From a virus (taxonomy: Duplodnaviria; Caudoviricetes): a stretch of DNA of 64,000 nt. Where the stretch lies: positions 49,640 to 113,639 of the IMG/VR virus record IMGVR_UViG_3300018492_000150. One strand, 5' to 3'. Numbering within the stretch: the stretch's first letter is position 1; every line of letters begins with the position of its first letter. This document shows positions 9,558 to 46,791 of the stretch, piece after piece. The translations under genes were made by a program, and so were the position numbers. A model generated the notes under the pieces. The model saw only the letters and a program-made list of their open reading frames with translations. It was not told the DNA's origin and ran no database searches.

Positions 9558-9983
9558 CTACGCTGGTATATATGCATTTAGATATATATTTGCTACATAG
9601 GCACTCCAATCGCCTGTAGTTGTTAGCATTATTTCTTTAGTATCTTTTCGCAAAAATATGCTTGCCATTTGATTATTATTATCTGACCATTGTATTGGAT
9701 AACTTGCCCAACTCGATAAAATACATGATGATTCTGTGTCTATAGTATAGTCAACAGCCCTGGATGCTATTTCTGGATTTGCATCTAATATATTTTTAAA
9801 CCCTATACGATACGTTTGTGTGGCATCAGAATTGGATAAAGTATACGTAATAATTGTTTCATATACTTCTAAATCTGAACTTGATTTAAAACCAATTCTT
9901 CTTATCATATTTTTTCTAGTAAATTTATAAGGAGCATATTTAGATCCTACAGTATTAAAATCTAAAATATCACTATATGCCAT
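9558..9983 (-). CDS. Small hypothetical protein, palindrome-headed unit A2
   Basis: Likely start ATG 9983 after GGGAGG; the track's MLGRY start lies inside the palindrome. Confidence 0.7.
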   Translation of the reverse strand: MAYSDILDFNTVGSKYAPYKFTRKNMIRRIGFKSSSDLEVYETIITYTLSNSDATQTYRIGFKNILDANPEIASRAVDYTIDTESSCILSSWASYPIQWSDNNNQMASIFLRKDTKEIMLTTTGDWSAYVANIYLNAYIPA

Positions 9984-9996
9984 TCTTATATACCTC

Positions 9997-10027
9997 CCTA
10001 ACATTCATGAAATTCATGAATGTTAGG
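9997..10027. repeat. 31-bp perfect palindrome, copy 1
   Basis: CCTAACATTCATGAA-A-TTCATGAATGTTAGG. Confidence 0.95.
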
Positions 10028-10346
10028 TAAGATTATTGTCTTGTGATATTATTTTTTTATACATCCAGCCATCGGTCTTAGTTTTTATCAATCTATGCAT
10101 AGCTCCCCAACTGAAATAATGCAGAACTAAACAATCTACATAATTTGTATATTTTTTATATCCAAAAACTTCATAACTTGATCCTTTACTTGCAACGAAA
10201 TGTAAAGAAAACACGCCATCGTAAATATCAGAATCTATTATTTTCTGTATAGATGATATAGCTTGAGAATCATCTACATTTACTTCTCTAGATATTCGTT
10301 GTATCCAAGATACATCCTTCATTATCACTTTATCAATATTACTCAT
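10023..10346 (-). CDS. Small hypothetical protein, palindrome-headed unit A1 (possible fibre knob-like beta domain)
   Basis: Start 10346 after GGGAGG; TAA stop lies inside palindrome copy 1. Confidence 0.7.
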   Translation of the reverse strand: MSNIDKVIMKDVSWIQRISREVNVDDSQAISSIQKIIDSDIYDGVFSLHFVASKGSSYEVFGYKKYTNYVDCLVLHYFSWGAMHRLIKTKTDGWMYKKIISQDNNLT

Positions 10347-10356
10347 ATTATACCTC

Positions 10357-10387
10357 CCTAACATTCGAAATAATTTCGAATGTTAGG
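10357..10387. repeat. 31-bp perfect palindrome, copy 2 (variant centre)
   Basis: CCTAACATTCGAAAT-A-ATTTCGAATGTTAGG. Confidence 0.95.
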
Positions 10388-10406
10388 AAGATAAAAAAGA
10401 AATAAA

Positions 10407-10435
10407 ACTCCCAGTAGGATTTTCCTACTGGGAGT
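10407..10435 (-). terminator. Terminator after tail fibre gene
   Basis: ACTCCCAGTAGGA-TTT-TCCTACTGGGAGT with flanking A and T tracts. Confidence 0.8.
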
Positions 10436-10444
10436 ATTTTTTTA

Positions 10445-13400
10445 CTATAATGCTTTCTTTTTATGCATATATAATGTAAGAGTTGTAGACGAATTTATAA
10501 TTGTATCAATATTACCAAGAACTTCCCAAGTTCCTCCGCATGTAGATGAGAAGAATGTCGCACTTGAACTTGTAGTCCATAATACTGTTCCGACAGGGAA
10601 ATCTACTTTCTTAGCACTATTAGCAGGACCTCCTGCAGAAGAAGAACCTGCATAATTGTGGGTATGGCTTGTCGGAGCATACCCAGAATGAGAGTGAGAT
10701 TTTGCCGCGGCACCTATAGCTGCAGGAGTAATGTTAACCTCTTTAGCAGCAGAACCATCATAAGTTGCTGCTGTAGTACCATTTGTCTTAACTGTCAAAG
10801 CATATGGATTCTTAAGCGATGTAGGTAATCCAGTAATTTGACTTGCTGGATGTGTATGGCTAGAAGCTGCATAATTGTGGGTGTGTGAAGCAGCAGCAGC
10901 ACCAATTTCTGACGGAGTTGGTTTATTTACTGAGCTATATATTTCACTCCAACTATTGAAAGATGTGCCATTATGAAATCTATAATATATAATATTATCA
11001 CTTCCATGAAGTTTTTGTGCAATATTACCACCAGCTATTCTATACACTTCTAGACCAAAGTGTTCTACCGATGATGGTTTATTTTTTACAGTATTACCAC
11101 CAGCAGCAAAATAATTTCCTGGAGTAAGCAAACTGTTCAAATCTTCTGAAGTTAATTGCTTAGAGTAACTATTTGGGATTTCTATATTCTTAGTTCCGTC
11201 GAATGAAATTCCATTAATAGTTCTAGCTGTTGCTAATTTTATTGCACTATTCGCAGACCCTCCTGCTGATCCAGACCCTGCATAGTTATGAGTATGGCTT
11301 GTTGGAGCATATCCAGAGTGAGAGTGGGATGCTGCAGCAGCACCTATAGCTGCAGGAGTAATATTTACTGTCTTCGCAGACCCTCCGTTAAAAGTAAATT
11401 TATTAGTATCTTCAGTTGTACCGCCATTAAATTGCATGGTAAGTGCATATGGACTTACCTGTGCTGTTGGAATATTTACTGTTACTGCCCCCGAACCATC
11501 ATATGTAGCTGTAGCAGCTCCAGTAAACTTAAGAGCATATGGGTTAGACAGCTTAGTAGGAATCCCTGTAATTTGACTTGCTGGATGAGTGTGACTAGCC
11601 GCAGCTTTACCGTTTAATTGTGTTTGAACTGCACTTGTAACACCTTTCATATAGTTCAATTCAGTTGCTGAAGCAGTTACTCCTAATGCTGATAATGTTA
11701 ATGATATAGGCTGCCAAGTCCCATCTCCTCTAAGATACTTGTTATTTTCTCCAACTCCTGGAGTTGGAACAAAACCAGTACCTCCTGCAGCTGAAGTAGT
11801 TGCTCCTTTAAATGTACTATGTCCATGACTAGCAGCTGCAGCTCCTACAGATGATGCCGTAATATTAACTTCTTTAGATACAGAACCGTCATATACTGCA
11901 GCTGATGTTCCATTTGTCTTAACTGTCAAAGCATATGGATTCTTAAGCGATGTTGGAAGTCCTGTAATTTGACTTGCTGCATGAGTATGGCTAGCAGCTG
12001 CAGCTCCTATTAACGCAGGTGTTATATTAACATTCTTAGCTACTGATCCGTTAAAAGTAAATTTATTAGTATCTTCAGTTGTACCGCCATTAAATTGCAT
12101 GGTAAGTGCATATGGACTTGCCTGTGCTGTTGGAATATTTACAGTAACAGCTCCAGACCCATCATATGTAGCTGTAGCAGCTCCAGTAAACTTAAGAGCT
12201 TGAGGATTAGGTAATTTAGTAGGTAATCCAGTAATTTGACTTGCTGGATGTGTATGGCTAGAAGGCGCTGCTCCTATTTCTGCAGCTGTAGGTTTGGCAG
12301 CTGCACTATATACTTTCTGCCAAGCCCCAAATGAAGCATTATCACGAACTCGATAATATATGATATTATTATTTCCATGTAATTTTTGTGCAATAGGCCC
12401 ACTAGCTATTCTATACACTTCTAGACCAAAGTAGTCTACCGATGATGGTTTATTTTTTACAGTATTACCGCCAGCACCAAAATAATTTCCAGGTGTAAGC
12501 AATTCATTAAGATCTTCTGAAGTTAATTGCTTAGAGTAATTATTTGGAATGTCTATATTCTTAGTACCATCAAATGAAATTCCATTAATAGTTCTAGCTG
12601 TAGCTAATTTTACTGCACTATTGGCTGATCCTCCAGCTGATCCTGAGCCAGCATAATTATGAGTATGGCTTGATGATGCTTTACCATTTAATTGTGTTTG
12701 AACTGCACTTGTAACACCTTTCATATAATTTAGTTCAGTTGCTGAAGCAGTTACTCCTAATGCTGATAATGAAAGTGGAACTACTTGCCATGTCCCATCC
12801 CCTCTTAAGAATTTACTTTGTTCTCCTATTGCAGGTGCAGGAACAAATCCAGTACCACCAGCTGCTGAAGCAGATGCCCCTTTAAATACACTATGGCTAT
12901 GACCAGATGTAGCAGCTCCAATTGAAGATGGTGTTATATTAACTTCTTTAGCAGCAGATCCATCATAAGTTGCTGCAGTTGCACCATTAGTTTTAATACT
13001 AAGGGAATATGGATTTTTTAATGATGTAGGCAATCCAGTAATTTGAGATGATGGATGTGTATGAGATGAAGCTGCAGCTCCAATTGAAGCTGGTGTTATA
13101 TTAACTTCTTTAGCAGCAGAACCGTCAAATGTAAATTTATTGGTACCTTCAGTAACGCCACCATTAAGTTGTAATGTGAGCTGTGAATTTGTTTTTGAGG
13201 TCGTAGGAATATTTACAGTAACAGCTCCAGACCCATCATATGTAGCTGTAGCAGCTCCAGTAAACTTAAGAGCTTGAGGATTAGGTAATTTAGTAGGTAA
13301 TCCAGTAATATCAGAAGCAGCAATTTTTTGCCAAGATTCTGATCCTGCAGTAGCACCTGCTTTTAAGAATTTACCAGAATTGGTTGTTCCTGTAGCAGGA

Positions 13401-13657
13401 ACATGATGGTTACCATCTCCAGTAGGATGCTTATAAGGAGCTCCTGTTGTGAGAGGATCCCATTTAGAACCAGTATATACATAACTTGTACTGTTTTCTT
13501 TTACAAATACTCTTAAACCTGCGGTAGCGGCTTTAAGAGTAACGAGTCTATCTCTTTCGGCAATTGTTTCTACTTGTTGCCGCACATCTAATAACGCTTC
13601 AGCTTGAAGCTTAAAAGGTGATGCAACAACAATGCCTTTTTTATCTTCGAATGCCAT
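10445..13657 (-). CDS. Tail fibre protein with internal repeats
   Basis: Repeated HTH/HSH motifs (SHTHPASQITGL), KLATARTINGISFDG and YDGS repeats, two knob-like domains, C-terminal FPVGTV...GGTW; start 13657 after AGGAGG. Confidence 0.9.
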   Translation of the reverse strand: MAFEDKKGIVVASPFKLQAEALLDVRQQVETIAERDRLVTLKAATAGLRVFVKENSTSYVYTGSKWDPLTTGAPYKHPTGDGNHHVPATGTTNSGKFLKAGATAGSESWQKIAASDITGLPTKLPNPQALKFTGAATATYDGSGAVTVNIPTTSKTNSQLTLQLNGGVTEGTNKFTFDGSAAKEVNITPASIGAAASSHTHPSSQITGLPTSLKNPYSLSIKTNGATAATYDGSAAKEVNITPSSIGAATSGHSHSVFKGASASAAGGTGFVPAPAIGEQSKFLRGDGTWQVVPLSLSALGVTASATELNYMKGVTSAVQTQLNGKASSSHTHNYAGSGSAGGSANSAVKLATARTINGISFDGTKNIDIPNNYSKQLTSEDLNELLTPGNYFGAGGNTVKNKPSSVDYFGLEVYRIASGPIAQKLHGNNNIIYYRVRDNASFGAWQKVYSAAAKPTAAEIGAAPSSHTHPASQITGLPTKLPNPQALKFTGAATATYDGSGAVTVNIPTAQASPYALTMQFNGGTTEDTNKFTFNGSVAKNVNITPALIGAAAASHTHAASQITGLPTSLKNPYALTVKTNGTSAAVYDGSVSKEVNITASSVGAAAASHGHSTFKGATTSAAGGTGFVPTPGVGENNKYLRGDGTWQPISLTLSALGVTASATELNYMKGVTSAVQTQLNGKAAASHTHPASQITGIPTKLSNPYALKFTGAATATYDGSGAVTVNIPTAQVSPYALTMQFNGGTTEDTNKFTFNGGSAKTVNITPAAIGAAAASHSHSGYAPTSHTHNYAGSGSAGGSANSAIKLATARTINGISFDGTKNIEIPNSYSKQLTSEDLNSLLTPGNYFAAGGNTVKNKPSSVEHFGLEVYRIAGGNIAQKLHGSDNIIYYRFHNGTSFNSWSEIYSSVNKPTPSEIGAAAASHTHNYAASSHTHPASQITGLPTSLKNPYALTVKTNGTTAATYDGSAAKEVNITPAAIGAAAKSHSHSGYAPTSHTHNYAGSSSAGGPANSAKKVDFPVGTVLWTTSSSATFFSSTCGGTWEVLGNIDTIINSSTTLTLYMHKKKAL
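12132..13309. repeat. 104-bp identical direct repeat within tail fibre (12132-12235 and 13206-13309)
   Basis: Direct comparison of the two stretches; many further near-identical modules in the gene. Confidence 0.85.
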
Positions 13658-13668
13658 TTTTTCGCCTC

Positions 13669-14649
13669 CTACCATTGAAATTTATTATTAAAATTGGTTA
13701 CTGTAGACTTATCACTAACGTAAACATAATAATCTACAGTAGAGCCATCTAGACATTGAATTGGTACGGTATATATTGTAAATGTGCTAGTTACATTGAA
13801 ATTGTTCTGGTCGTAAATAGCACTTAAAGTACCGTATGATTTTGGATAAGCAAAAACAAAACGTTGGTTATTTGCAGTAAATGAATAGGTCTTAGTTCCT
13901 TTACTTTCAATATGTTTTGTCAAAGCTTTAATTTCTTCTTGTGTTGGAATTGTATCTGTTGATAAACTTCCATGATATATAGGATGAACAAAGGTAAATG
14001 TACCTGTGTTTTTTGATACAACTGCTCCTGTGTCATCATATACTTTAGCAGTAAAATATTTATTGGTTCTAACTGCTATATTCAAAACAAAATCAAAAGT
14101 TCCACCTTTAGAAACTCCATCTGTTTTAGTAGCAATAATATTAGAACCTTCTACAATATCAATCTTTGTAAGATTATTTGATTTAATTGTAGCATTAACT
14201 CTTATCTTAGTCACAGATACCAATGTACCCATCTCATAAGTTCCTCCATTTCCAGGAGTTAAAACTTGAGCAGATACAGTTGGAGAGACGTATGGATATA
14301 ATATCATATCAAACATTTCTTGAAGAGTTTTATTATTAAATGTAGTACCAATAGGTATACCACCATGCTCTACATAAGTAGGTATATTTTTATTATACCG
14401 TGAACCTAAAGACCAGTTATTTTTCTCTTCTTCAGTAACAAACTGATGGTCTTTATCAGTTATAATTTCTCTTGCGGTATGTGTATGATTTTTATCAGCT
14501 TTACCGTTGATAGCATCTTCTACATTTGTACCGTCATCCATTATAACAGTCTTAGCCTTAGTTCTATAATATAAAGGCGTATCATCTTGAGGTTCACCAG
14601 TAGAAGGGTCTTCTCCGGGATTATCAATCCTTTCTAATTCTTCTGACAT
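13669..14649 (-). CDS. Tail or baseplate-associated structural protein
   Basis: GKADKNHTH motif, beta-rich; overlaps the RBS of the fibre gene. Confidence 0.6.
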   Translation of the reverse strand: MSEELERIDNPGEDPSTGEPQDDTPLYYRTKAKTVIMDDGTNVEDAINGKADKNHTHTAREIITDKDHQFVTEEEKNNWSLGSRYNKNIPTYVEHGGIPIGTTFNNKTLQEMFDMILYPYVSPTVSAQVLTPGNGGTYEMGTLVSVTKIRVNATIKSNNLTKIDIVEGSNIIATKTDGVSKGGTFDFVLNIAVRTNKYFTAKVYDDTGAVVSKNTGTFTFVHPIYHGSLSTDTIPTQEEIKALTKHIESKGTKTYSFTANNQRFVFAYPKSYGTLSAIYDQNNFNVTSTFTIYTVPIQCLDGSTVDYYVYVSDKSTVTNFNNKFQW

Positions 14650-14662
14650 GTATGTCACCTCC

Positions 14663-15544: not shown

Positions 15545-15629
15545 ACAAGTCTCCTCCTTTCCTATTAATTTAATATGATGTTTTTCGATACAGTCTATTA
15601 TCAAAAAAATATAGAGGATAGCCAAACGG

Positions 15630-16607: not shown

Positions 16608-16627
16608 TAATAATCACTCCTTTGAGT

Positions 16628-17899: not shown

Positions 17900-17918
17900 A
17901 ATTATTCTCCTTTTATAT

Positions 17919-18497: not shown

Positions 18498-18509
18498 AAT
18501 ACAACCTCC

Positions 18510-19265
18510 TTATACAAGATCTGTAAATTCAACACTAGCTAAACCTTGCAATGCAAATTTAACTTGCGTTGTCAGTTCGGCGTAGTGTTGATTAAAATAA
18601 TTTACTATTTGTCGCTTAAAGAAATCTCCATTATCTAATAATATAGACTGAAGATACTTAGCAACTTGTCTATTTGGAATATATGCAAGATCGATATATG
18701 TATCAAACGGAACATCGTATGCACATATATTTTGCAGAACAAATTCTAAATTAGCATGAATAATAGCTAATTTAGAGTTACCGTTTTTATATAATTTCTT
18801 GCTGTATGACGAGGCATCTTTTTTCTTTGATGCTAATTCTAAAGTTTCATAAATCATATTCTTTTCTCGGTTAATATAATTTACAAAGAAATTAGTAATA
18901 TAAATATTGAATCTTGCTACTAAGAAATCATAGATCCACGTAGCAGCTGAATAGATATCATCATTTTCATTACCAATATATGTAAGGTTATGAGCCTTAC
19001 ATACCATATCGATTACTTGACGATAAATATCACATCTTTGAGAATTGATCTCTGAACTGAATTCAGGAATACCTGATAACGATACTTTATAATTTTGCTC
19101 AATAACTTCTACAATATTAGTCATTGACATTGAATAGTTTCTATATTTATTATTCAATGCATCTTCTACTAGATCTTCTATCATTTCTGGTGTAAATCTG
19201 CATACTATACTAGCAGCTTCATTAGCAGATATGATAGAAAAATCTGAATTTTGTGATAAATTCAT
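18510..19265 (-). CDS. Hypothetical protein
   Basis: 251-aa ORF, AGGAG RBS. Confidence 0.7.
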   Translation of the reverse strand: MNLSQNSDFSIISANEAASIVCRFTPEMIEDLVEDALNNKYRNYSMSMTNIVEVIEQNYKVSLSGIPEFSSEINSQRCDIYRQVIDMVCKAHNLTYIGNENDDIYSAATWIYDFLVARFNIYITNFFVNYINREKNMIYETLELASKKKDASSYSKKLYKNGNSKLAIIHANLEFVLQNICAYDVPFDTYIDLAYIPNRQVAKYLQSILLDNGDFFKRQIVNYFNQHYAELTTQVKFALQGLASVEFTDLV

Positions 19266-19359
19266 TTTATCTTCCTCCTATACTAATAAATTAATAAGTT
19301 GTTTTACCTAAACTTAAAAAGTATATCCAAGAGTATAGTAACTCTTGGATATATCTTGT

Positions 19360-23350: not shown

Positions 23351-23524
23351 AATAATCCTCGTCTTTCTCCTATTTACGCATAGGTGCTTTGATATATTTT
23401 CTTTGAATTATGTAATATAGTAGATATTATTATACTATATTCACTATAATAATATGCTATTGAAATAGAGGACTTTTACAAAAAAGAAAACGGAGTATGG
23501 TTAACCATACTCCGTGTTTTATTA

Positions 23525-28068: not shown

Positions 28069-29782
28069 TGACAAACGAGATGCAAACAGTATTTATGGGT
28101 GTCTTGGTAATGCAGCTTGTGTGTTGTATAATTTATATGTAGCTGCATCAATTACAGCTCAAGGAAGATCAGTTATATCAACGGCAACAATGTTCTTTGA
28201 AAGTTTTATGGCAAACAATGTAAAATTTGGTTCATTGGAAGATGTATTACATTTCATTGATTGTGTATGCTCAGAGAAAAACACAAGAGTATTTAATGAT
28301 GCGAATGTATTAGATTTTAATGTATCAGCAGATATGTGTTTTGCTAAAATTATGAGAACTTGCGGAGATTGGAGAAAAGGTAGAATTAAATGGGTTCCAT
28401 CATATGAAGACGCAAAGCTTATTTATTCTACAATAAGCTCATTAAATCAAGAAGATTTGAATAGATTATTTTATAAGAATAATCTATATGCATTTCTTGA
28501 AAATAGATCAATCATGAATGGTATTAAATATATTCTCAAATCATTAAAAGAACCATATTTATCTCCAAATAAAGTTCCAGATGAGATTAAAGTAGAATTA
28601 GATACTTTGCAGGATTTATTTAGAGAATATGTATATTATCCTCATATGTATATTGATAGGATTGATAGATGCAATAATATGATCAAAGATGTATGTGTTA
28701 TTTCAGATACAGATAGTACGATTGTAAGTTTCGATGCATTTTATCATTTCGTATTAGATAGATTAATTGGAGAAGATATTTATATATCTACATTAGAAGC
28801 TGATCTTGAGAAAGATAAATATATACAAGTTACACCTAAGAAAGAATTAAGATATGACTTTATAAACGATGAAATTGTAGAAAGAGACTCTATGATTAGA
28901 CCGTTTGTTATATCTAGACAGAATAATCTTAGATTTAGTATTATCAATATCATTGCATATATTAGTGGTAATTTGTGTAATGAATATGTGGAATTATATA
29001 CTAAGTGCAACCATTCTTACAAAGAAGGTAAAAAATGCTTATTATATTTAAAGAATGAGTTCTTGTTTAGTAGAGCATTATTGACAAATAATAAAAAGAA
29101 TTATGCTACAAATCAAGAACTTAAAGAAGGAGTTGTTCTTGAACAGAATATAGACAGAGCTTTAGATATTAAAGGTCTTCCTATAAATAAATCCACATTA
29201 AACGAATCTGCGAAAGAAGCATTACAGAAGATTTTGTATGAAGACGTATTAACTGCAGATAGAATTAATCAAACTAGAATTATAGAGAAGATTGCTATAT
29301 TGGAAAAACAGATAGAAGAATCTCTTAGAAATGGAGAAAAGAAATTCTACAAACCATTAGCTATTAAAGCCATGTCTAGCTACGAAGACCCAATGAGAAT
29401 TCAAGGCATTAAAGCATCTATTGTATGGAATAAAGTAAGAGGAGATCAATTAGAAGCAATTGATTTAGATGCAAGAAATACAATAGGTGTGGTTAAAGTA
29501 AATATCAATCCGTCAAATATAAGTGCAATAGAACATACTTATCCAGAGGTATATAATAGATTTGTACAATTATTTATGGATAATACTTTCTTTAGAAGTG
29601 GTAAAAAAGAAATAACTACATTAGCTATACCTGTAAATGTGGATACTCCACAATGGGTGAGAGAGTTTATTGACTATAGAACAATTATAAATGATAGTAT
29701 AACAAACTTCCCATTTGAATCTGTAGGTATAACAAGATTAGGTTCAGGAGATATTAATTACAGTACAATAATGAAAATATAA
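28069..29782 (+). CDS. Family B DNA polymerase, C-terminal subunit, exon 2 (spliced product 699 aa)
   Basis: KRDANSIYG (motif B), SITAQGR, ISDTDS (motif C), KKNY, IKGL. Confidence 0.92.
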
Positions 29783-29826
29783 AAAATAAAAGCAGAGTAC
29801 TGAAAAGTACTCTGCTCTTTTTATTC

Positions 29827-30369
29827 TTATACAGATCCTATCGAAAACACTTCATCGATAGAATAGATCCAAGAAGAAGAATTTGCATCCTCTGAAGTAT
29901 CAATAGTGAATGTGCTTCCATCCTCATTAATTTCACATATTCGTCCAATTTGAGATGCCATATCGCGATCGGTTACTTTAACAATATCATCTAATACATA
30001 TTCATATCCATTGTGAACTATAGCCACATATTCATCTACTTTAATGCTATCTATTAATAATTTATAATCTGACATCTCAGGAATATCATCAACATAATCA
30101 AAGCAACACTCTAATATATAGTTAAAAGAATGTTGGATTAATTTGCTATGATATTTAGTAGATGCATCTAATACAAACACTGGTTTAGATTTATCACTAA
30201 TATCTATGTCTACTATTGGAAGTTTTCTAATTATTTCTACATTGTTTTTATCCATCCAACGAATTGGAATGTTTACTCCGATGCCAAACATAAACATCGG
30301 TCTTATACCAGGACAAGCTCTTTTATCAATAAAAATCCTAATAGTACATCTTTTTTCAATTTTAGCCAT
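29827..30369 (-). CDS. Hypothetical early protein
   Basis: AAGGAGG RBS; early-type motif at 30415-30429. Confidence 0.7.
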   Translation of the reverse strand: MAKIEKRCTIRIFIDKRACPGIRPMFMFGIGVNIPIRWMDKNNVEIIRKLPIVDIDISDKSKPVFVLDASTKYHSKLIQHSFNYILECCFDYVDDIPEMSDYKLLIDSIKVDEYVAIVHNGYEYVLDDIVKVTDRDMASQIGRICEINEDGSTFTIDTSEDANSSSWIYSIDEVFSIGSV

Positions 30370-31028: not shown

Positions 31029-31044
31029 AAAAGAAGCTAGTGCA

Positions 31045-31620: not shown

Positions 31621-31723
31621 ATATTTACATCCTCTCTTTCCTATATCTTATTATATAATAGTGTCAAGTTTTATAATTTCCAAAACATATAAGTAATTGA
31701 TCAGAAAGAAGGTAAAACGTCAA

Positions 31724-33438: not shown

Positions 33439-33813
33439 ATGAATGCTTTTACAAATCCAGAAACAATTAAACGTGCTCAGGAATTAGTAGATGCTATGAA
33501 AACTGGTCAACAGTTAATTCAGCAGCTTACTGGACCTGAACAACAAACTCAACAACCAATACAGCAACCTGTATGGTATAATCATTTCACTTGTACTTAT
33601 GGAGAAATTATTGTACCACAAAATATTGTACTGCCAGAGATGACAATCAATTCGATAAGAGTATTATTAGACGCATATGCCCATATATTAAATTGCAGGT
33701 TAGAGTTATATCTTAACGGATATACTGATGAGAATAATATGAGGTTCTTGTCTAGTCAATTTGGTATTGTATTTATCATTGATAACGGGAAAATCAGTAT
33801 AATAAGAAACTAA
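33439..33813 (+). CDS. Hypothetical early protein with Gln-rich linker
   Basis: AAGGAGG RBS before ATG 33439; early motif at 33390. Confidence 0.7.
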   Translation: MNAFTNPETIKRAQELVDAMKTGQQLIQQLTGPEQQTQQPIQQPVWYNHFTCTYGEIIVPQNIVLPEMTINSIRVLLDAYAHILNCRLELYLNGYTDENNMRFLSSQFGIVFIIDNGKISIIRN

Positions 33814-35238: not shown

Positions 35239-35259
35239 AGAAAGGAGGTTTGATAACAT

Positions 35260-35679: not shown

Positions 35680-35694
35680 GGAGAAAAGTAAGAA

Positions 35695-36240: not shown

Positions 36241-36284
36241 AAGAAAATGCCAGATGAGGATAATCCTCATCTGGTTTATTTTTT

Positions 36285-37034: not shown

Positions 37035-37045
37035 TGTATCACCTC

Positions 37046-37879: not shown

Positions 37880-37996
37880 GACAATTCCTCCTTTTATATT
37901 ATTATACTGATGTTGCAGTGAGCACAAGTTAACCAATCTCCATTAATTTACAGCTTCAACAGTATATTAAATTAATAAAGAGGAGGTCGAATACTG

Positions 37997-41320: not shown

Positions 41321-41414
41321 TATCTGTGTAAAATTGGATATAATAACAATATAGTAAATATTTAATGTAAATTAAATAAGAAAAAATTGATGAGTAAGAA
41401 AGGAGACTAATACT

Positions 41415-43181
41415 ATGATTATTGGTGAAGCGCCGAGACGTAATATGTCCGACAGTTTTAAAAACGACCCAATGCATAGTTTCGTTGAGTCCTATGTTAA
41501 TCTTACACAGGGCATCTTAAACGAAAATGCAACTGATATATATACAGACCCAGCAAGAGCATTTATGGCAAATGGAAGTAACGAAGCTCTTAAAAACTTC
41601 TTCGTAGAAAATTCTTACGATCCACAGGGTATGACTCCAGATGAAATCGAAGACCATGTTGCTACTATGGAACAACAGTATGACAATGACCGTTCAGGTC
41701 TTCTTGAGCAGACAATGATGAGCTCTATGAATCCAATGATCGGCATCACAATTCCGATGCACAAATGGATTCTTATGAATATGGTATTTGACAAAGGTGC
41801 TATTCCGAAGTTTGTTGCTCGTTCACCGAAGTTTACAATTTCTATGGAATATCGTATCTTGGTTGACACAGAAGGAAATGAACTGGATATGTTCCGTGAT
41901 CAGAACCTTATGACAGACGCTATCGAAAAGACAGCTCCAGAGGTTGAGTTTGAACTTCCAACACTTCCATTCACAGATGACAATGAAGTTGTACACACCT
42001 ACCTTAACGGTCTTGCAGGCGCAGATCATCTGTCTATTGAGACAAGAATCTCAGCTTTTAAAATCCAAAACCAGTATTTTGAAATTGGCGATATTCTTCC
42101 AGATGAGAAGACTGGATATATTGAGCCAAATGGTAAAGTAGCTACAGAAGCAGGTAATCATGATGTTTGGGTTAGATGTAATTATGCATTTGCACCTACA
42201 TATGGTGAAGTTGAACGTGCTCTTATGGCGAACGTTTCTTATGAGTATAAAGTAAATGAAGGCGGAGTTAAGATCAAGAAAATTACAGACTTCGTTTCTG
42301 GTACAATGCAGAACGACAGACTTAACATTCAGGTTCTTAAAGGAAACCTTAAAGGTATTCGTATCACTTCAAGATTGGATACATCCAGTGCACGTCTTAC
42401 AACATGTAGCGTAAGATGGAAAGAGAAAACAGATATTGTTGAAATTCCAAATGCTATTCCGATAGACGTAACAGTATCTCCAGAAGAAACAAAAGATATC
42501 GCAGCTCTTTACAATGTAAATCAGGTAACTAAGATCATGAGCATGATCAAAACAGTTCTTGGAAATACAAAAGACGATCAGATCAGAAGAAAACTTGATC
42601 AGTCTTATAAGACAATGGATGTACGTTCTAAAACATACAGCCAGTTCGATTACGCTCCTCGTGAAGGATATCACGGAGATCATGTTGAGTGGAGAAGAAA
42701 TACATTCTTCGATTTCTTCGATTCTCAGATGACAAAACTGTATCAGGTATTAAACGATCCGAACATGACAGTTTCTGTATTCGGTGATCCAGATCTTGTA
42801 AGAAAGATTACACCGACAGATTATAGCTACCAGACACCGTCTAACATCGGACCAGTGCAGCTTGACTTCACAAAGACAGTTGTTACTTCTGATTCTAGAG
42901 TATACAACTTCATCGGTTCTGATAAACTTCGTGGATCAACAGAATTTATCGTAGTTCTGTGTCCAAGAGGAACAGATAGAATTATCTACAGAATCTATGA
43001 TTACCAGATGTATATCAGCAATGAAATTAGAAACGCTGATAATCCGGCATTACCGAACATCCATGCATTCGAGCGTTGGAAATTCGTAGAATATCAGCCA
43101 GTTCAGGGACGTATCAATATCTTACATCCTACAGGATTGACAGATCACTACGACTTTGTTCAGGTTAAACAAGTTCAGTAA
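41415..43181 (+). CDS. Major capsid protein
   Basis: 588 aa in head cluster; high-expression codon usage (TTC, AAC, CGT); own late promoter at 41345-41356 and strong terminator. Confidence 0.75.
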   Translation: MIIGEAPRRNMSDSFKNDPMHSFVESYVNLTQGILNENATDIYTDPARAFMANGSNEALKNFFVENSYDPQGMTPDEIEDHVATMEQQYDNDRSGLLEQTMMSSMNPMIGITIPMHKWILMNMVFDKGAIPKFVARSPKFTISMEYRILVDTEGNELDMFRDQNLMTDAIEKTAPEVEFELPTLPFTDDNEVVHTYLNGLAGADHLSIETRISAFKIQNQYFEIGDILPDEKTGYIEPNGKVATEAGNHDVWVRCNYAFAPTYGEVERALMANVSYEYKVNEGGVKIKKITDFVSGTMQNDRLNIQVLKGNLKGIRITSRLDTSSARLTTCSVRWKEKTDIVEIPNAIPIDVTVSPEETKDIAALYNVNQVTKIMSMIKTVLGNTKDDQIRRKLDQSYKTMDVRSKTYSQFDYAPREGYHGDHVEWRRNTFFDFFDSQMTKLYQVLNDPNMTVSVFGDPDLVRKITPTDYSYQTPSNIGPVQLDFTKTVVTSDSRVYNFIGSDKLRGSTEFIVVLCPRGTDRIIYRIYDYQMYISNEIRNADNPALPNIHAFERWKFVEYQPVQGRINILHPTGLTDHYDFVQVKQVQ

Positions 43182-43202
43182 TTAAAAGATGACGCAGCAG
43201 AG

Positions 43203-43232
43203 AATCCCAGTACCACTAATGGTACTGGGATT
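43203..43232 (+). terminator. Terminator after capsid gene
   Basis: AATCCCAGTACCA-CTAA-TGGTACTGGGATT plus T tract. Confidence 0.85.
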
Positions 43233-43325
43233 TCTATTTTTGTCTGATTATTTTTATCCTATTCTCATAAATACTTTATAATAATATATTATAATAGCGA
43301 TAAAAATATATAAGGAGGAATAAAT

Positions 43326-44015
43326 ATGAATGCAATTGTGGCTATTGATGATAAGAATGGAATTGGAAAAGAAGGACAGCTTTTAATAAAATTAAAAGCT
43401 GATATGAAATGGTTTAAAAATATTACTACTAACAAAGTAGTTATTATGGGAAGAAAAACTATGGAAAGTATAGGAAAACCACTACCTAATAGATTAAATA
43501 TTGTACTTACTAGAAATTATACATTAAATAAACCTGGATATATTTTTCTTCATTCTATCGAAGATCTCATGATGTTTCTGAGACTCAAACGTATCTCTAC
43601 AAAGGATTGTTTTGTAATTGGCGGACAGCAAATTTATAAAGCTCTAGAAAGACAGATAACGTATGTATACGTTACAAGAATTCATAAAACATTTGAATCA
43701 GACGCAAAATTTCCTATACCATTTAAAGCTATGAAACTACTATGTTCATCTCGTATTAGAGGAGAAAATGGAATTAATTATGAATTTCAGGTATATAGAA
43801 ATTGTGGATTGTTCTTAGATTTTTTACAACATATATTAGAAAGACCATTAAGAACTGATGAGATTGAATTATCTAAAAGAATACTAACTTCTGATACAAA
43901 TTTGAAATTGGTATTGGTAGAAGGGACAGCAGAACAATTAGGAATAGATACATCTAAAGGATTAAGAAGAAAATTCAGTTATGAAACTATAAAAGAATTC
44001 TCAGAAGACAAATAA
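43326..44015 (+). CDS. folA: Dihydrofolate reductase with C-terminal extension
   Basis: AIVA..NGIGKEG.L, DMKWFK, VIMGRKT, PLPNRLNIVL, VIGG.QIY. Confidence 0.93.
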   Translation: MNAIVAIDDKNGIGKEGQLLIKLKADMKWFKNITTNKVVIMGRKTMESIGKPLPNRLNIVLTRNYTLNKPGYIFLHSIEDLMMFLRLKRISTKDCFVIGGQQIYKALERQITYVYVTRIHKTFESDAKFPIPFKAMKLLCSSRIRGENGINYEFQVYRNCGLFLDFLQHILERPLRTDEIELSKRILTSDTNLKLVLVEGTAEQLGIDTSKGLRRKFSYETIKEFSEDK

Positions 44016-44156
44016 AAGAGAGGATAGGATTAAATCCTATCCTCTATATATTTTTTTGGAATTATTTCAAATTTTCAATTACATATTATCATCATGAAAA
44101 GGATACAGAGTCACACCTCTGTATCCTTATATCCCCAATTGAAAGGAGATGATTTC

Positions 44157-44330
44157 ATGAAAAACCTTCTTATGGAACATACGTTCCATGATTGCATGGT
44201 CGGAGATATACTCCAGCCTGTACCCGTGATCGTAACACAGGATAATGGCGATGGTACTTATCAAGGTTATCTTGACCTAGATAAGATGTCAGCTAAACAA
44301 CGTATCGTAGCAGATATGTTTAGCCATTAA
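44157..44330 (+). CDS. 57-aa microprotein, paralogue 1
   Basis: GAAAGGAG RBS; PVIVTQDNGDGTYQGYLDLDK shared with 47547-47714. Confidence 0.8.
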   Translation: MKNLLMEHTFHDCMVGDILQPVPVIVTQDNGDGTYQGYLDLDKMSAKQRIVADMFSH

Positions 44331-44454
44331 CCATAACAATAGAGAGTTATCGTCCCACCTCTCTATTATTTTTTTGTTACCTAATATATTATTTTACCAA
44401 TACTTAATATCTTCACATACAAGTAATTTATTAGTATGAAAGGAGCTAAATACA

Positions 44455-45702
44455 ATGAATCAAAATTTAGAAGGATTATACAAATGTATACTTGAATTAG
44501 GTTCAACATCTGATTTTGAAAATATAACACCTTTGAATGATTTGACCAATGCAATGAGAAGAGAACTGAACAGATTGTTTCCTGATTTTAAGTGTGGAGA
44601 AGTGATTATCAATAAAAATACAGATAAACAGTTTTTTGGTATTATAGTAGTTCCGGATTATAAATTTGGATCTTGCTCTGATTTTGCTCAAAGAGTTCTT
44701 CAGGGATATAAAGGAACTTATGTACATAATGCAGTTAGAGAATTCGAACCTTTTAAAGAATGTGCATATACATTAGAAATAGATATGCAGTTAATTAGAA
44801 GATTTGATCTTAAACCAGGTGAAGTAATTGCTCTTGTATTGAGAGAAATATGTGTTATGAATTCTCCGAAACCATATTCCGATTTAAGAAACATCATTGA
44901 CAGATTCGTTGCTCTAAATAATATAGAGCTTGACGTATATGAAATTCTAACAAGACCTGAATTATTTTCTACAGTATGCGATGTAACTATGCATAACATA
45001 ACAAGTATATTCGAAGGAAATAATCTTGAATTATATAGGAATGATGTCCCTGATGTATTGAGAACATTTGAAGATAATATTCCGGATTATTATTTATCTG
45101 CAACAGAGAAGCTTTATTCTGTAGCTACTCCTGAGAGTATAGATACTGCTACTGTATTAATGGATTGGTATCTTAGAATATATGATAAATTAGATCAAAG
45201 CAGGGAAATAGAATATCTTCTTAGAGATAGTATAGAAATAGAATCAAGTATTATTATTAAACGCATGCTCGCATATTGCTATAAGAGTATGTCAACAGTT
45301 TCTCCAAGAGACGAGAAATACTATCAAGATGTAGTTCAAGAGTCTTCAAGAAGAAAAGGTCTTATTTATCAAATGAAACGTAATGGATTGAAATCTATTG
45401 AAGAGGACTTATTTGAATATAATATGAGATTGCGAAATGTGGAGACCCAGGACGATGCTATTTTGTTAATGAGACAGATTAACAGCAGAATGAGTATTCT
45501 TGAAGATTATCTTATGGGAGAAAAAGATCTTGATGATAAAGAAAGAGAAAGATGGGAGACTTGTTACAAGAAATATCTTGATCTTAGAGAGTCTTTATCT
45601 AAAAAGACAGTATATAATAAGAAGATGTACGGTTTATTCGTAGACTATAATGCGTTGCAGAATATGTCTCAGAGCGGAAATCTTATGAATACTTATTACT
45701 AA
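44455..45702 (+). CDS. Hypothetical protein, probably virion
   Basis: 415 aa, GAAAGGAG RBS; helical C-terminal domain after VVQES. Confidence 0.6.
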   Translation: MNQNLEGLYKCILELGSTSDFENITPLNDLTNAMRRELNRLFPDFKCGEVIINKNTDKQFFGIIVVPDYKFGSCSDFAQRVLQGYKGTYVHNAVREFEPFKECAYTLEIDMQLIRRFDLKPGEVIALVLREICVMNSPKPYSDLRNIIDRFVALNNIELDVYEILTRPELFSTVCDVTMHNITSIFEGNNLELYRNDVPDVLRTFEDNIPDYYLSATEKLYSVATPESIDTATVLMDWYLRIYDKLDQSREIEYLLRDSIEIESSIIIKRMLAYCYKSMSTVSPRDEKYYQDVVQESSRRKGLIYQMKRNGLKSIEEDLFEYNMRLRNVETQDDAILLMRQINSRMSILEDYLMGEKDLDDKERERWETCYKKYLDLRESLSKKTVYNKKMYGLFVDYNALQNMSQSGNLMNTYY

Positions 45703-45759
45703 AAATATCAGAGATAGCGGATATTCTCCGCTATCTCTTTTCTTTTTATATATTTCTTA

Positions 45760-45790
45760 CCTAACATTCATGAAATTCATGAATGTTAGG
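45760..45790. repeat. 31-bp perfect palindrome, copy 3
   Basis: CCTAACATTCATGAA-A-TTCATGAATGTTAGG. Confidence 0.95.
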
Positions 45791-45803
45791 GAGGTATATA
45801 CGG

Positions 45804-46253
45804 ATGAGCTCTACTGATAAAATTATGTTCGATTTTTCATCTAAGTTTAATATTAAACTTAAATCAAATATACAACTGAATTCTGGAAAAAATTATTATT
45901 GGATAAATACATATTACTTTAATATAGAGGCATATGGAGATACCTCAGGAACTTACATAGGAGGTAATGTAAGTGATGCTATGATGGTAAATGGAATGTG
46001 TTTTGTTCAGTTTAATCTTACGGGTAATTATATAAACTATAAAAATAGCTGGTTAGAATTTGTTTCTGGAGAGGGATATGGGTCGAAAATATATTCAACA
46101 TATTTGTCAGATTCTGAAAAACATAGTGGAGGAAATCCATTAAATATATATCAAGGAATTAGACAAATGATGTTAGTTATAGATACTACTCAAGCTTGCA
46201 CATTATTTCCAAATAATTTACTTTTCCATATATGGAGAATAAATTGTAGATAG
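45804..46253 (+). CDS. Small hypothetical protein, palindrome-headed unit B1
   Basis: ATG 45804 after GGGAGG; rich in aromatic residues, Asn and Gly. Confidence 0.7.
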   Translation: MSSTDKIMFDFSSKFNIKLKSNIQLNSGKNYYWINTYYFNIEAYGDTSGTYIGGNVSDAMMVNGMCFVQFNLTGNYINYKNSWLEFVSGEGYGSKIYSTYLSDSEKHSGGNPLNIYQGIRQMMLVIDTTQACTLFPNNLLFHIWRINCR

Positions 46254-46285
46254 ATTGGATATAATTCCAATCTATCTATTTCTTA

Positions 46286-46316
46286 CTTAACATTCATGAA
46301 TTTCATGAATGTTAAG
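46286..46316. repeat. 31-bp perfect palindrome, copy 4 (compensatory change)
   Basis: CTTAACATTCATGAA-T-TTCATGAATGTTAAG. Confidence 0.95.
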
Positions 46317-46332
46317 GTAGGTGATATATAAG

Positions 46333-46791
46333 ATGAATATAATAAAATTTAAGCCATATTATAAAGCTGTATTTTCAGGATATTTACACGTAGGATCTAG
46401 TTCTAGCGGAAGTACTATTCCAATCACAAATTTAACATGTGAAGTTGATGGAAAAAATATTTATGATTGTTACGAAAACGCTCCGTTTAACCCTACGTAT
46501 TATACCGGTATTCAATGTTTAGGCCCTACAATGATACGATTTATAATTGGTGATAATAGTATAAATAAAGATTTAAGTTATCTTGCTATAGGATCTTTTA
46601 GAGACGCTAATATTAATAACAGAAAAGCTTTAATTAATCCGGACTTTACTGATCCTGAAAATGAAATGGATATATCTCCTTTACCATTATATGAAAGCCC
46701 TTGGTTAAATTCAGTAACTCTAGTTTCAAATATAGGACAATCTGATATGAACTTTACTAAATATATTTTAGAAGCGTGGGTTTTTGTATAA
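46333..46791 (+). CDS. Small hypothetical protein, palindrome-headed unit B2
   Basis: ATG 46333 after AGGTG. Confidence 0.7.
   Translation: MNIIKFKPYYKAVFSGYLHVGSSSSGSTIPITNLTCEVDGKNIYDCYENAPFNPTYYTGIQCLGPTMIRFIIGDNSINKDLSYLAIGSFRDANINNRKALINPDFTDPENEMDISPLPLYESPWLNSVTLVSNIGQSDMNFTKYILEAWVFV

Follow-up and report, generated by a model that had tools for sequence, protein, structure and literature searches.

The closest described counterparts of the element presented here are the PeSLs (promoter-early stem-loops), regulatory cassettes that are mobile in T4-type phages (Arbiol et al., 2010, PMC2839356; Comeau et al., 2014, PMC4122927). PeSLs are repeated intergenic motifs of about 50–60 nt in which promoter and stem-loop are combined with a Shine-Dalgarno sequence and a start codon; they front ORFans in the most plastic regions and contain the breakpoints of indels and replacements between 95%-identical phages, without the involvement of a site-specific recombinase. 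The element which we refer to as the head shares the length, the stem-loop, the Shine-Dalgarno sequence and start codon, the place before ORFans in variable regions and the breakpoints, and no site-specific recombinase was found in about 80% of the phage genome; a promoter is predicted in it from an AACA grammar. It differs in that the PeSL promoter is an early, host sigma-70 one, whereas here a late AACA promoter of the phage's own non-virion RNA polymerase (RNAP) is predicted; in that its stem-loop is not a GC-rich terminator but a perfect 31-bp palindrome carrying the predicted promoter core twice, face to face; in that its core is identical in 41 of 42 copies; and in that the lineage is AR9-like, with Firmicutes-type signals.

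In Bacillus phage AR9, late promoters follow the pattern AACA-N6-TA/G, in which positions −11 to −8 are indispensable and −1 is less important, substitutions there having a small effect (PMC5312081, PMC5449584). The promoter is read on the template strand, gp226 being the promoter-recognition subunit of the non-virion RNAP (PMC5312081, PMC5449584, PMC9209446). The head resembles AR9 late promoters in having AACA at the right distance from a predicted purine start and a leader of typical length; yet it carries A instead of T at −1 and its core is duplicated as an inverted repeat, and no such palindromic promoter occurs in AR9. As for the morons of lambdoid phages, which are independent units inserted between conserved genes, they likewise consist of one accessory gene each, equipped with a promoter-like head and a terminator, and are present or absent between near-identical genomes. 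However, morons have no common head sequence and are usually expressed from the prophage, in contrast to the one head that fronts 18 families in a lytic-type jumbo phage. On sequence grounds, we regard it as reasonably probable that the element is a palindromic late-promoter/ribosome-binding head that also drives cassette shuffling via homologous recombination.

Source Phage and Its Polymerase Genes

The window, i.e., the whole stretch of 64,000 nucleotides that was analyzed, is part of a 113.6-kb contig (G000) of an uncultured human-gut jumbo phage. Judged from its sequence, this phage is a distant relative of AR9; its tail sheath and about 60 further proteins match AR9/PBS1, with order conserved. 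It encodes a cognate polymerase for AR9-type late promoters, with homologs of the beta-C (32% over 660 aa, E 2e-68) and beta'-N (E 2e-27) subunits of the AR9 non-virion RNAP together with a gp226-like specificity subunit:

61377..62261, + strand: gp226 homolog (N-terminal two thirds), 25% identity over 239 aa, E 2e-9, in synteny with GroEL and BI022_gp226 homologs

The searches for recombinase and transposase families covered five contigs, G000–G004, of 443 kb in total and about 200 kb unique sequence, i.e., about 80% of a roughly 245-kb genome.

Palindromes in the Window and the Genes Behind Them

The first-pass annotation of this DNA reported four 31-bp palindromes, and each of them is indeed a perfect 15-1-15 inverted repeat:

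9997..10027, − strand: palindrome copy 1, CCTAACATTCATGAA-W-TTCATGAATGTTAGG; head about 9981–10036; predicted start site near 10013
10357..10387, − strand: palindrome copy 2, inner variant TTCGAA-ATWAT-TTCGAA; head about 10344–10396
45760..45790, + strand: palindrome copy 3; head about 45745–45806; predicted start site 45774
46286..46316, + strand: palindrome copy 4, CTTAAC...GTTAAG subtype with GTAGGTGATAT as ribosome-binding flank; predicted start site 46300

The full pattern, with up to three mismatches allowed, matched 3 times in the window vs. 0.00 in 100 shuffles, and the outer pattern AACATTC-N11-GAATGTT 4 times vs. an expected 0.03. No further copies were found in the whole 113.6-kb contig. 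As was described before, the center of copy 2 differs yet stays self-complementary (TTCGAA-ATAAT-TTCGAA), and copy 4 carries a paired C>T/G>A change. The reported directional context is likewise real: each copy is followed, at a distance of 13–19 nt, by an ATG that has GGGAGG or GGTAGGTGA in front of it. The genes behind the copies are encoded on the − strand at the first locus and on the + strand at the second; they are listed here with the neighboring features:

9558..9983, − strand: 141-aa ORFan (fam79), with a low-confidence beta-sandwich model
10023..10346, − strand: 107-aa gene (fam24), predicted fold like C-terminal domains of phage receptor-binding/tail-fiber proteins (AF2 pLDDT 77)
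10407..10435, unstranded: bidirectional terminator hairpin between the tail-fiber gene and copy 2
10445..13675, − strand: tail-fiber gene of about 1070 aa, matching PHROG tail-fiber families and Pfam PTR
45710..45738, unstranded: bidirectional terminator hairpin upstream of copy 3
45804..46253, + strand: 149-aa ORFan (fam96), N-terminus MSSTDKIMF; relatives 86–99% identical; missing in L101
46246..46279, unstranded: terminator-like hairpin upstream of copy 4
46333..46791, + strand: 152-aa ORFan (fam164), in relatives replaced by unrelated or very distant 152–160 aa genes
46795..46822, unstranded: bidirectional terminator closing the second cassette; right-hand boundary of the replaced segment

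Two further details of the annotation were reproduced: the stop codon of the 107-aa gene is the TAA within CCTAAC, inside the arm of copy 1, and terminator-like hairpins precede three of the four copies, copy 1 being the one without.

The four genes were described as mutually dissimilar, and neither BLAST nor profile comparison reveals any similarity between them; however, they are not wholly unrelated, as the N-terminal signature M-x-x-x-D-x-I-x-F is common to many head-led proteins. The 141-aa protein has one homolog among 5.8 billion proteins and is just 51% identical to its G003 ortholog, the backbone being 97% identical. The top seven VIA matches of the 107-aa model are all C-terminal domains of phage receptor-binding, tail-fiber or tailspike proteins (Z 6.0–8.0), and its orthologs are 51–57% identical. 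In the 152-aa gene the homology break runs from 3 nt past the ATG through the stop codon. The C-terminal part of the tail fiber encoded next to the first locus is hypervariable among relatives, with 74–78% nucleotide identity or unalignable, vs. 95–97% for the backbone.

The Head Across Related Contigs

We found that the palindrome forms the core of a longer, conserved and directional element, the head, which measures about 55 nt and is composed of TTTCTTACC, AACATTC-N11-GAATGTT and GGGAGGTATAT-N3-5-ATG, with a hairpin or T-rich stretch upstream of TTTCTTACC and a strong Shine-Dalgarno sequence before the ATG. Related contigs, which belong to a clade of uncultured human-gut jumbo phages with kinship to AR9, contain 42 heads. 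These front 18 unrelated gene families and occupy at least seven dispersed sites on both strands. The 25-nt core is the same in all heads except one, though the downstream orthologs fall to 37–57% identity. The inner variant of copy 2 stands at the matching position behind the tail fiber in G001 and G003, and relatives carry the CTTAAC...GTTAAG subtype again at sites B, D and G. Most head-led genes are 100–160 aa ORFans, many of the genes are tail-associated, and 16 of the 18 families have no Pfam or PHROG match. Two genes encode virion proteins, a Gp10-like baseplate protein (Gp10_C, 55 bits) and a pectate-lyase-like one; the earlier suggestion of receptor-binding modules thus holds insofar as some head-led genes encode proteins of the tail or receptor-binding type.

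In turn, the symmetry noted for the four copies is not always kept in the relatives, among which one head is chimeric (L105, between subtypes), one is mutated, one is a 22-bp short form and one a half-site. The L112 head has GACA in its sense arm and an intact gene, and in L106 an orthologous gene retains the left arm alone, AACATTCATGAA.

A strictly conserved sequence, beyond what mere pairing would demand, is what would be expected of an operator bound by a dimeric phage-encoded repressor or activator, which would define an accessory-gene regulon and possibly overlap the late promoter. The invariant half-sites AACATTC and GAATGTT at a constant spacing of 11 nt, with a center in two variants, form a classic two-half-site layout. 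Yet an operator does not require a self-complementary spacer, and both spacer variants are perfect palindromes; the center base is biased on the sense strand (T in 35 heads, A in 7), which indicates a directional function, and no candidate regulator was identified. We consider an operator unlikely, although worth keeping in mind, and it is compatible with the promoter/shuffling model rather than exclusive of it.

The pairing itself could alternatively act in RNA, i.e., as a stem-loop in the 5'-UTR that stabilizes the mRNA, as an RNase III site between cistrons or as a mask of the ribosome-binding site in read-through transcripts. In each of the four copies of the window the 14–15-bp stem reaches into the Shine-Dalgarno sequence, with −22 to −26.5 kcal/mol and z −5 to −8.5, perfect pairing is kept in all variants of the window, and a bicistronic read-through RNA is expected at copy 1, since no terminator lies upstream of it. 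However, nothing promoter-like was seen upstream of the palindrome that would transcribe both arms, and the ribosome-binding site pairs no better next to the natural left flank than next to a shuffled one (0.70 vs. 0.70, p 0.85), a pairing that disappears where the head has a hairpin of its own upstream. No variant differing by G-U pairs only was seen; the C>T change is compensated by G>A even though U-G would pair, which points to symmetry at the DNA level. Rfam 15 gave no family above the gathering threshold and generic sub-threshold hairpin matches only. Altogether we find an RNA role distinctly improbable.

Gene Exchange at the Heads

That the element marks swappable genes, as proposed from the single sequence, is borne out by the relatives, in which gene content, number and orientation vary at fixed loci between near-identical phages. 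While the backbones are 95–99% identical, a given head-led gene may occur in one relative and be missing from another, or be found inverted, replaced or deleted, with breakpoints at the heads. Backbone proteins show 98–99% identity vs. 51%, 56% and 91% for three of the window genes, the fourth being absent, and three of these four genes belong to the 18 most divergent or missing ones. Behind the tail fiber we observed three architectures (G000/G003, G001 and L110), and site B holds four alleles or a single cassette. Two sites occupied in relatives are empty in the window:

29782..29827, unstranded: cassette site D, empty here, where two convergent genes are separated by a bidirectional terminator; head-led genes in G004, G001 and L107
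43181..43326, unstranded: empty cassette site C, from the 588-aa gene to the DHFR gene; in G001 and L113 a head and a 132-aa gene on the opposite strand

At site D, the gene of G004 is oriented opposite to that of G001. In comparison with G002, L097 carries a 1.66-kb deletion with a 41-bp overlap at a head, and L100 joins the reverse complement of G000 80–81 kb to G000 96.4 kb across a head, the junction expected of recombination between inverted heads. These events are read from assembled metagenome contigs, in which chimeras may arise at a repeated 55-nt sequence, but several independent samples agree.

Because identical heads are scattered in both orientations and their core is the same on both strands, homologous recombination between them can, as the comparison of genomes shows, reshuffle the genes behind, which are deleted, inserted, replaced or inverted. 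The locus next to the tail fiber and the other loci thereby become hot spots of gene exchange, apparently without a dedicated site-specific recombinase.

The same breakpoints at the element, along with cassette content that varies at fixed loci, were the basis on which an integron-like attC or another site-specific recombination site, with cassettes moved by an unseen recombinase, had to be weighed. Imperfectly similar inverted core sites (RYYYAAC/GTTRRR), which the ends of the palindrome resemble, flank exchangeable single-gene units in integrons, and the contigs searched span only about 80% of the genome. Yet attC sites are 57–141 bp long and imperfect, with R''/L''/L'/R' boxes and extrahelical bases, lie at the cassette 3' end and require IntI and attI, their cassettes being usually promoterless, whereas the present element is 31 bp long, perfect, devoid of extrahelical bases and fused to a ribosome-binding site at gene 5' ends. 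Rather than promoterless cassettes in one array and one orientation downstream of attI/Pc, we found dispersed cassettes in both orientations, without attI, Pc promoter or platform, most of their heads being preceded by a terminator. Phage_integrase (PF00589, E ≤ 0.01), Resolvase and Y1_Tnp (PF01797) had no match in G000–G004, while the control genomes were all positive; the tyrosine recombinase that the first-pass annotation proposed to look for is therefore missing from the part of the genome that was searched, about 200 of roughly 245 kb, and the integron analogy is not borne out. One crossover falls inside the 41-bp overlap and one head is chimeric between subtypes, signatures that look like homologous exchange between repeated heads. 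A site-specific system seems very unlikely to us.

The presence/absence polymorphism of the cassettes, and the TTAC that precedes the hairpin, would also suit a hairpin that ends a MITE-like or non-autonomous IS200/IS605-type mobile element with a passenger gene. TTAC is the target motif of IS608. Nevertheless, the Y1 transposase is among the families missing from G000–G004, no second conserved end hairpin exists, the 3' boundaries being unrelated terminators, and the fact that ribosome-binding site and start codon are so tightly fused to the hairpin favors a role in expression. We hold such an origin to be extremely improbable.

The Head as a Proposed Late Promoter

The element probably supplies a promoter, as had been supposed, and the AACA of its arms, already pointed out, is the key feature, matching the essential −11 to −8 positions of AR9-type late promoters. 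Counted over 220 non-redundant upstream regions from these phages, AACA-N6-TA has 38 sense and 9 antisense occurrences, while spacings of N5 and N7 do not exceed background (7/6 and 9/8, respectively), and the AR9 early motif TATATTAT-N6-G has 27 sense and 7 antisense occurrences. The AACA-N6-TA grammar is enriched upstream of the phage's structural genes, and AACATTC is a frequent beginning of ordinary late promoters in these phages.

Both arms of the palindrome start with AACA, which stands at −11 to −8 of the predicted start. Instead of T at −1 and A/G at +1, AA is found at these two positions in heads of the main type and AT in those with the inner variant; among about 97 ordinary sense AACA sites, AA is found in 2 and TA in 42. 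The predicted leader has a median length of 31 nt for the heads vs. 29 nt for the 42 ordinary late promoters, and the leader counted from the palindrome center is unstructured (−0.7 kcal/mol). No other AACA or early motif was found between the upstream terminator and the ATG.

We therefore propose, by analogy with AR9, that the gene-proximal arm, AACA-TTCATG-AA, is a late-promoter variant for the phage's own non-virion multisubunit RNAP. With AACA at −11 to −8 and the start 7 nt on, transcription would begin from the palindrome center, giving an unstructured leader of about 30 nt which would leave the strong ribosome-binding site free, so that late transcription of each cassette would be independent and insulated. 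Antisense firing of the mirror arm, directly into the adjacent terminator, is conceivable, but the upstream hairpins are mostly ordinary bidirectional terminators and hence lend it little support. The virion proteins behind two of the heads and the left arm kept alone in L106 speak for the promoter, whereas the A at −1, the GACA in the sense arm of L112 before an intact gene and the absence of the element from AR9 itself speak against it.

One arm suffices for a promoter, and hence the promoter model leaves the perfect self-complementarity of both arms and the inner variant unexplained. It is conceivable, although we judge it quite unlikely, that the symmetry is itself functional. The head would then be a bidirectional or hairpin-assisted promoter for a multisubunit phage RNAP that reads the template strand, a cruciform or hairpin aiding its opening as in phage N4, and a dedicated mechanism by which gut jumbo phages exchange receptor-binding and other modules of the virion surface would use this structure as its favored point of crossover or strand switching, with M-x-x-x-D-x-I-x-F as a common virion docking signal for the captured modules. 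The N4 virion RNAP promoters are similar in having an inverted repeat at the promoter and a phage-encoded polymerase, and enzymes of the AR9 type are also able to initiate on single-stranded DNA. In contrast, N4 hairpins are extruded, have a 5–7-bp stem and a 3-nt loop and serve a single-subunit polymerase, while here the stem measures 15 bp and the polymerase is multisubunit.

Implications for AR9-Like Phages of the Gut

If the promoter/shuffling model is true, the AR9 promoter grammar and, by implication, template-strand reading would extend to uncultured human-gut jumbo phages. Regulatory motifs that drive modular shuffling, known from the PeSLs of T4-type phages, would also have a second, independent example in the head, which achieves this via a late promoter and a palindrome usable in both orientations. 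The head would tag at least 18 families of hypervariable genes, some of which are related to tail or baseplate, and thereby make the head-led families prime candidates for host-range determinants. Such genes could then be found in metagenomes by a simple sequence tag, the head, which would also serve as a compact candidate late expression signal for the engineering of AR9-like phages.

A repeated palindromic head in the window and its relatives

We found four palindromes in the window, all of them perfect 15-1-15 inverted repeats, at the positions and with the symmetry claimed for them in the first-pass annotation, including the different but self-complementary centre of the second copy and the paired substitution of the fourth:

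9997-10027, minus strand: copy 1, perfect 15-1-15 inverted repeat
10357-10387, minus strand: copy 2, perfect 15-1-15 inverted repeat, with the centre TTCGAA-ATAAT-TTCGAA replacing TTCATGAA-A-TTCATGAA
45760-45790, plus strand: copy 3, perfect 15-1-15 inverted repeat
46286-46316, plus strand: copy 4, perfect 15-1-15 inverted repeat, with paired C>T and G>A

The genes at locus 1 (copies 1 and 2, behind the tail fibre) lie on the minus strand and those at locus 2 (copies 3 and 4) on the plus strand. Read in gene sense, all four copies share the context TTTCTTAC[C/T]-palindrome-[G/A]G-GAGGTATAT (or GTAGGTGATAT)-N3-5-ATG, and the directional arrangement ahead of a ribosome-binding site and start codon was thus seen at every copy; we refer to this unit as the head and to the gene behind it as head-led. 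The further details reported for these loci were also borne out: the TAA stop of the 107-aa gene (10023-10346) sits inside the arm of copy 1, terminator-like hairpins precede three of the four copies, and the 141-, 107-, 149- and 152-aa products show no similarity to one another. The pattern AACATTC-N11-GAATGTT occurs four times in the window against 0.03 expected, and for the full palindrome with up to three mismatches the shuffle expectation is 0.00. The annotated element is genuine and very far from random.

These phages, like AR9, a Bacillus jumbo phage with its own non-virion RNA polymerase, have many other perfect palindromes, each of which is a unique terminator; the present element forms the only repeated family. 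As a rule, a terminator here or in AR9 is a perfect palindrome of unique sequence with a 0-3-nt loop (in the window, e.g., 9542-9571, 23490-23515, 36250-36274 and 50208-50237), flanked by A-runs and T-runs that make it bidirectional.

The proposed scan of relatives for the palindrome, carried out as an exact-pattern search of viral and metagenome contigs, was productive. It yielded four related viral contigs (G001-G004) and 21 more loci, for a total of 42 heads, and the downstream content differed at fixed sites. An identical 25-nt core is shared by 41/42 heads, and the flanking sequence is conserved in a directional manner. Three subtypes are found repeatedly in different genomes: CCTAAC...GTTAGG with GAGGTATAT, CTTAAC...GTTAAG with GTAGGTGATAT, and an inner variant, TTCGAA-ATWAT-TTCGAA. 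The head of locus L105 is a chimera that combines CTTAAC in the left arm with GTTAGG in the right. On the sense strand the centre base is T in 35/42 heads and flips to A between near-identical genomes; this bias implies that the element is not functionally symmetric. Natural variants also occur, namely a 22-bp perfect palindrome lacking one TTCATGAA unit (L102:10811-10832), an asymmetric copy with TGACA... and ...TTATGG (L112, about 1940-1975) and the left arm AACATTCATGAA alone ahead of an orthologous gene (L106, minus strand, about 10300-10330).

The element was found neither in 50,697 isolate phage records nor in AR9, and a looser scan of viral contigs returned only unrelated terminator hairpins with CTAACATTC arms in common. 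Other palindromes with AACA...TGTT ends were isolated cases in G003 and formed no class. Rfam contained no family at threshold for the element, and no prior description of the palindrome sequence was found in the literature. A second conserved head, consisting of an early-promoter-like ATATTAT, a hairpin, TATATCCCC and GAAAGGAGATGA, is shared by two paralogous genes of 55-57 aa on either side of the site B region (44040-44335 and 47430-47720; overall nucleotide identity 78%).

Phage background and RNA polymerase genes

The related contigs originate from human-gut metagenomes, with samples such as ORTS01, NFZD01 and OGQJ01. The window covers bases 49640-113639 of a 113,639-bp IMG/VR contig; GC content is ~31%, and the CheckV completeness estimate of 46% for the contig corresponds to a genome of ~245 kb. 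The tail sheath and ~60 other proteins match those of AR9 and PBS1 at 20-45% identity and in conserved order. Homologues of the non-virion RNA polymerase subunits include beta-C (32% over 660 aa, E 2e-68; Pfam RNA_pol_Rpb2_6, E 2.5e-14), beta'-N (E 2e-27 against AR9; Pfam RNA_pol_Rpb1_2) and the promoter-recognition subunit gp226 (61377-62261; 25% over 239 aa, E 2e-9), the last being syntenic with the GroEL and BI022_gp226 homologues. The gp226 homologue has only 294 aa, as compared with 464 aa in AR9, and matches residues 19-246. The ORF that follows (62535-63548, 337 aa) matches residues 268-358 no better than chance (E 0.47), and the specificity subunit may thus be truncated, divided in two or interrupted. 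An HNH-endonuclease-like ORF (27077-27874) matches the AR9 HNH gene located inside the beta' gene and is probably a mobile homing-endonuclease gene, since it shares only 29% identity with its G001 counterpart. The dihydrofolate reductase gene (43326-44015) encodes 229 aa, of which ~70 form a C-terminal extension as compared with the 159-position profile; its place in the thymidylate pathway is noteworthy in a phage related to AR9 and PBS1, which have uracil-DNA.

Promoter grammar and a predicted promoter in the heads

AR9 early promoters read AAATATATATTAT-N6-G and late ones AACA-N6-TA/G; in the latter, the AACA element (-11 to -8) is indispensable, +1 is important and -1 contributes little, and the enzyme reads the template strand and is able to start on single-stranded DNA (PMC5312081, PMC5449584). 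Among 220 non-redundant upstream regions of the phages studied here, we counted AACA-N6-TA 38 times in sense and 9 times in antisense, and TATATTAT-N6-G 27 times in sense against 7 in antisense. Spacings of N5 (7/6 sense/antisense) and N7 (9/8) did not rise above background. The sense enrichment of both motifs indicates that this uncultured gut phage uses the two-polymerase promoter grammar of AR9. In the window the late motif precedes, e.g., the tail-sheath gene and a virion-protein gene (8751-9491). Many window genes have an ordinary late promoter (AACA-N6-TA, often AAACAtnnaagTAAT) 21-59 nt ahead of them (e.g., in 8661-8750, 9492-9557, 18905-18998, 31621-31723 and 59780-59898), and early-type promoters (TATATTAT-N6-G) are found ahead of others, such as the dihydrofolate reductase gene (about 43270-43300) and the gene at 33439.

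AACA opens each palindrome arm, and the gene-ward reading is AACA-TTCATG-A-A, the spacing of which would place the transcription start at the palindrome centre, with predicted start sites at 10013, about 10373, 45774 and 46300 for copies 1-4. The predicted leader has a median of 31 nt in heads versus 29 nt for 42 ordinary late promoters, and is unstructured according to folding prediction. AACATTC is a frequent beginning of ordinary late promoters, no other promoter-like motif was detected between the upstream terminator and the ATG, and the L106 gene led by a left arm alone was counted as fitting, as was the sense-strand T bias of the centre base. Against this reading, the -1 base is A in heads, whereas ordinary AACA sites have AA in 2 cases versus TA in 42; moreover, the inner variant gives AT and the sense arm of L112 is GACA. 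A one-armed promoter also leaves the perfect self-complementarity of both variants unexplained. We consider the suggestion that the element supplies a promoter to be the best-supported account of its function, and a late promoter with a central start to be slightly more probable than not.

As for other regulatory readings, matches to the host sigma-70 consensus were at or below shuffle expectation and numbered zero at heads, and a host promoter was rejected. Symmetry might instead reflect masking of the ribosome-binding site in read-through RNA, such that only internally initiated mRNA is translated, and all four window copies do fold in this way. Across 36 distinct heads, however, Shine-Dalgarno pairing was 0.70, the same as with shuffled left flanks (0.70, p 0.85), and was low where the left flank makes its own hairpin; since pairing equals that of shuffled flanks, masking is not supported as a selected feature and was not adopted. 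A dedicated antisense terminator was likewise discarded, the upstream hairpins being mostly ordinary bidirectional ones (23 with an antisense and 21 with a sense T-run). About seven have a T-run on the antisense side alone, and a few of these lie at sites without a gene reading towards the head; this would be compatible with antisense firing from the mirror arm but is weak evidence for it.

Probable gene exchange at the heads

The backbones of the window genome (G000) and of G001, G003 and G004 share 95-98% nucleotide identity and 98-99% median protein identity. The four window head-led genes, taken in order, are 51%, 56-57% and 91% identical in relatives and absent; three of them are among the 18 most divergent or missing of ~105 genes (hypergeometric p ~0.015). 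Gene content differs between genomes at these fixed sites:

Site A, behind the tail fibre: 107-aa and 141-aa genes in G000 and G003; 583-aa pectate-lyase-like and 104-aa genes in G001; a single 104-aa gene in L110
Site B, window 45.7-46.8 kb: second gene from the family of the 152-aa protein (fam164), from the unrelated fam177, or either form of a 158-160-aa family
Site C, window 43181-43326: empty in the window; head and 132-aa gene on the opposite strand in G001 and L113
Site D, window 29782-29827: empty in the window; filled in G004, G001 and L107

At site A the head subtype in front of one gene family changes from genome to genome, in L101 both site B genes are replaced by a single cassette, and at site D a gene shared by G004 and G001 is inverted in one relative to the other. 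The replacement between G000 and G001 extends from 3 nt past the ATG to the stop codon. Between L097 and G002, two genes are lost through a 1.66-kb deletion whose alignment blocks overlap by 41 bp exactly at a head. In L100, the reverse complement of G000 80.1-81.2 kb is joined across a head to G000 96.4 kb onward; recombination between the heads of sites D and B, which lie in inverted orientation ~17 kb apart, would be expected to leave this junction. Compared with G000 79.4-99.8 kb (window 29.8-50.2 kb), L100:1-5675 shows a ~17-kb inversion with both ends at these head-bearing sites. Because the core has the same sequence whichever strand is read, heads can pair with one another in direct or inverted orientation, which explains inversions as well as deletions. 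Breakpoints in these alignments coincide with heads, and shuffling quite likely occurs there.

The tail-fibre gene (C-terminal two thirds, 10445 to about 13270) varies together with the cassettes behind it. Among relatives it is the most divergent large gene, at 74-78% nucleotide identity or unalignable, and encodes only 610 aa in G003.

The ends of the palindrome had been likened to integron attC sites. This reading did not survive: the element departs from attC in length, imperfection, extrahelical bases, 3' position and the single oriented array behind attI and Pc, and the suggested search for a tyrosine recombinase, extended to serine recombinases (resolvases) and Y1 transposases, yielded none in five contigs (~200 kb of unique sequence, or some 80% of the genome), with all control genomes positive. 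The element is very probably not an attC site. The broader idea of a cassette system holds in that gene content and orientation vary at fixed sites with breakpoints at heads, the mechanism most likely being homologous exchange rather than an integron.

Head-led proteins

Proteins downstream of the 42 heads fall into 18 BLAST-distinct families, most being ORFans of 99-160 aa. A 248-aa member is of the Gp10_C baseplate type (55 bits), and the 583-aa protein has an N-terminal pectate-lyase/rhamnogalacturonase motif at E 1.9e-5, which falls short of the curated cut-off. The four window proteins matched no Pfam or PHROG family, and no named relatives of the small head-led proteins were recovered from Pfam, PHROGs, the ESM Atlas, a 5.8-billion-protein search or a 1.8-billion-representative HMM search. 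A single hidden superfamily was rejected, as hhalign gave weak links only (fam164-F11 51%, F4-F7 46%) and none among the four window proteins.

The proposed comparison with fibre-tip structures gave suggestive matches for one protein. For the 107-aa protein, modelled with AF2 (pLDDT 77), the nearest structures (Z 6.0-8.0) were C-terminal domains from receptor-binding proteins, tail fibres and tailspikes of phages, including the phi812 baseplate, phage K gp144, AS12 gp42, the Mu fibre and the R2 pyocin fibre; the matches are consistent and suggestive of such a fold, Z alone not being decisive in this range. Foldseek against the PDB gave no match below E 0.2 for this model, and that of the 141-aa protein was too weak (pLDDT 60, best Z 5.9).

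An N-terminal signature, M-[AGS]-x-x-D-x-[ILV]-x-[FV], is present in 19/42 head-led proteins from at least 8 families, as compared with 1/470 other ORFs. Its carriers include the window proteins of 9558-9983, 10023-10346 and 45804-46253, as well as proteins of L096-L116 and G001-G004. It may represent a docking or targeting peptide, or a conserved head that reaches into the first codons.

Relation to the PeSL cassettes of T4-type phages

The closest analogue of the head is the promoter-early stem-loop (PeSL) found in T4-type phages. A PeSL combines promoter, stem-loop, Shine-Dalgarno and start codon in a repeated unit ahead of ORFans in hyperplastic regions, and inter-PeSL recombination makes 95%-identical phages differ by insertions, deletions and replacements (PMC2839356). 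In contrast to PeSLs, which carry early promoters of the sigma-70 type, the heads would carry late promoters of the phage polymerase; they are, moreover, palindromes in which two copies of the promoter core face each other, their sequence hardly varies, and they occur in a different phage lineage. We regard it as fairly probable that a late-promoter head combined with homologous exchange between heads accounts for the element as a whole.
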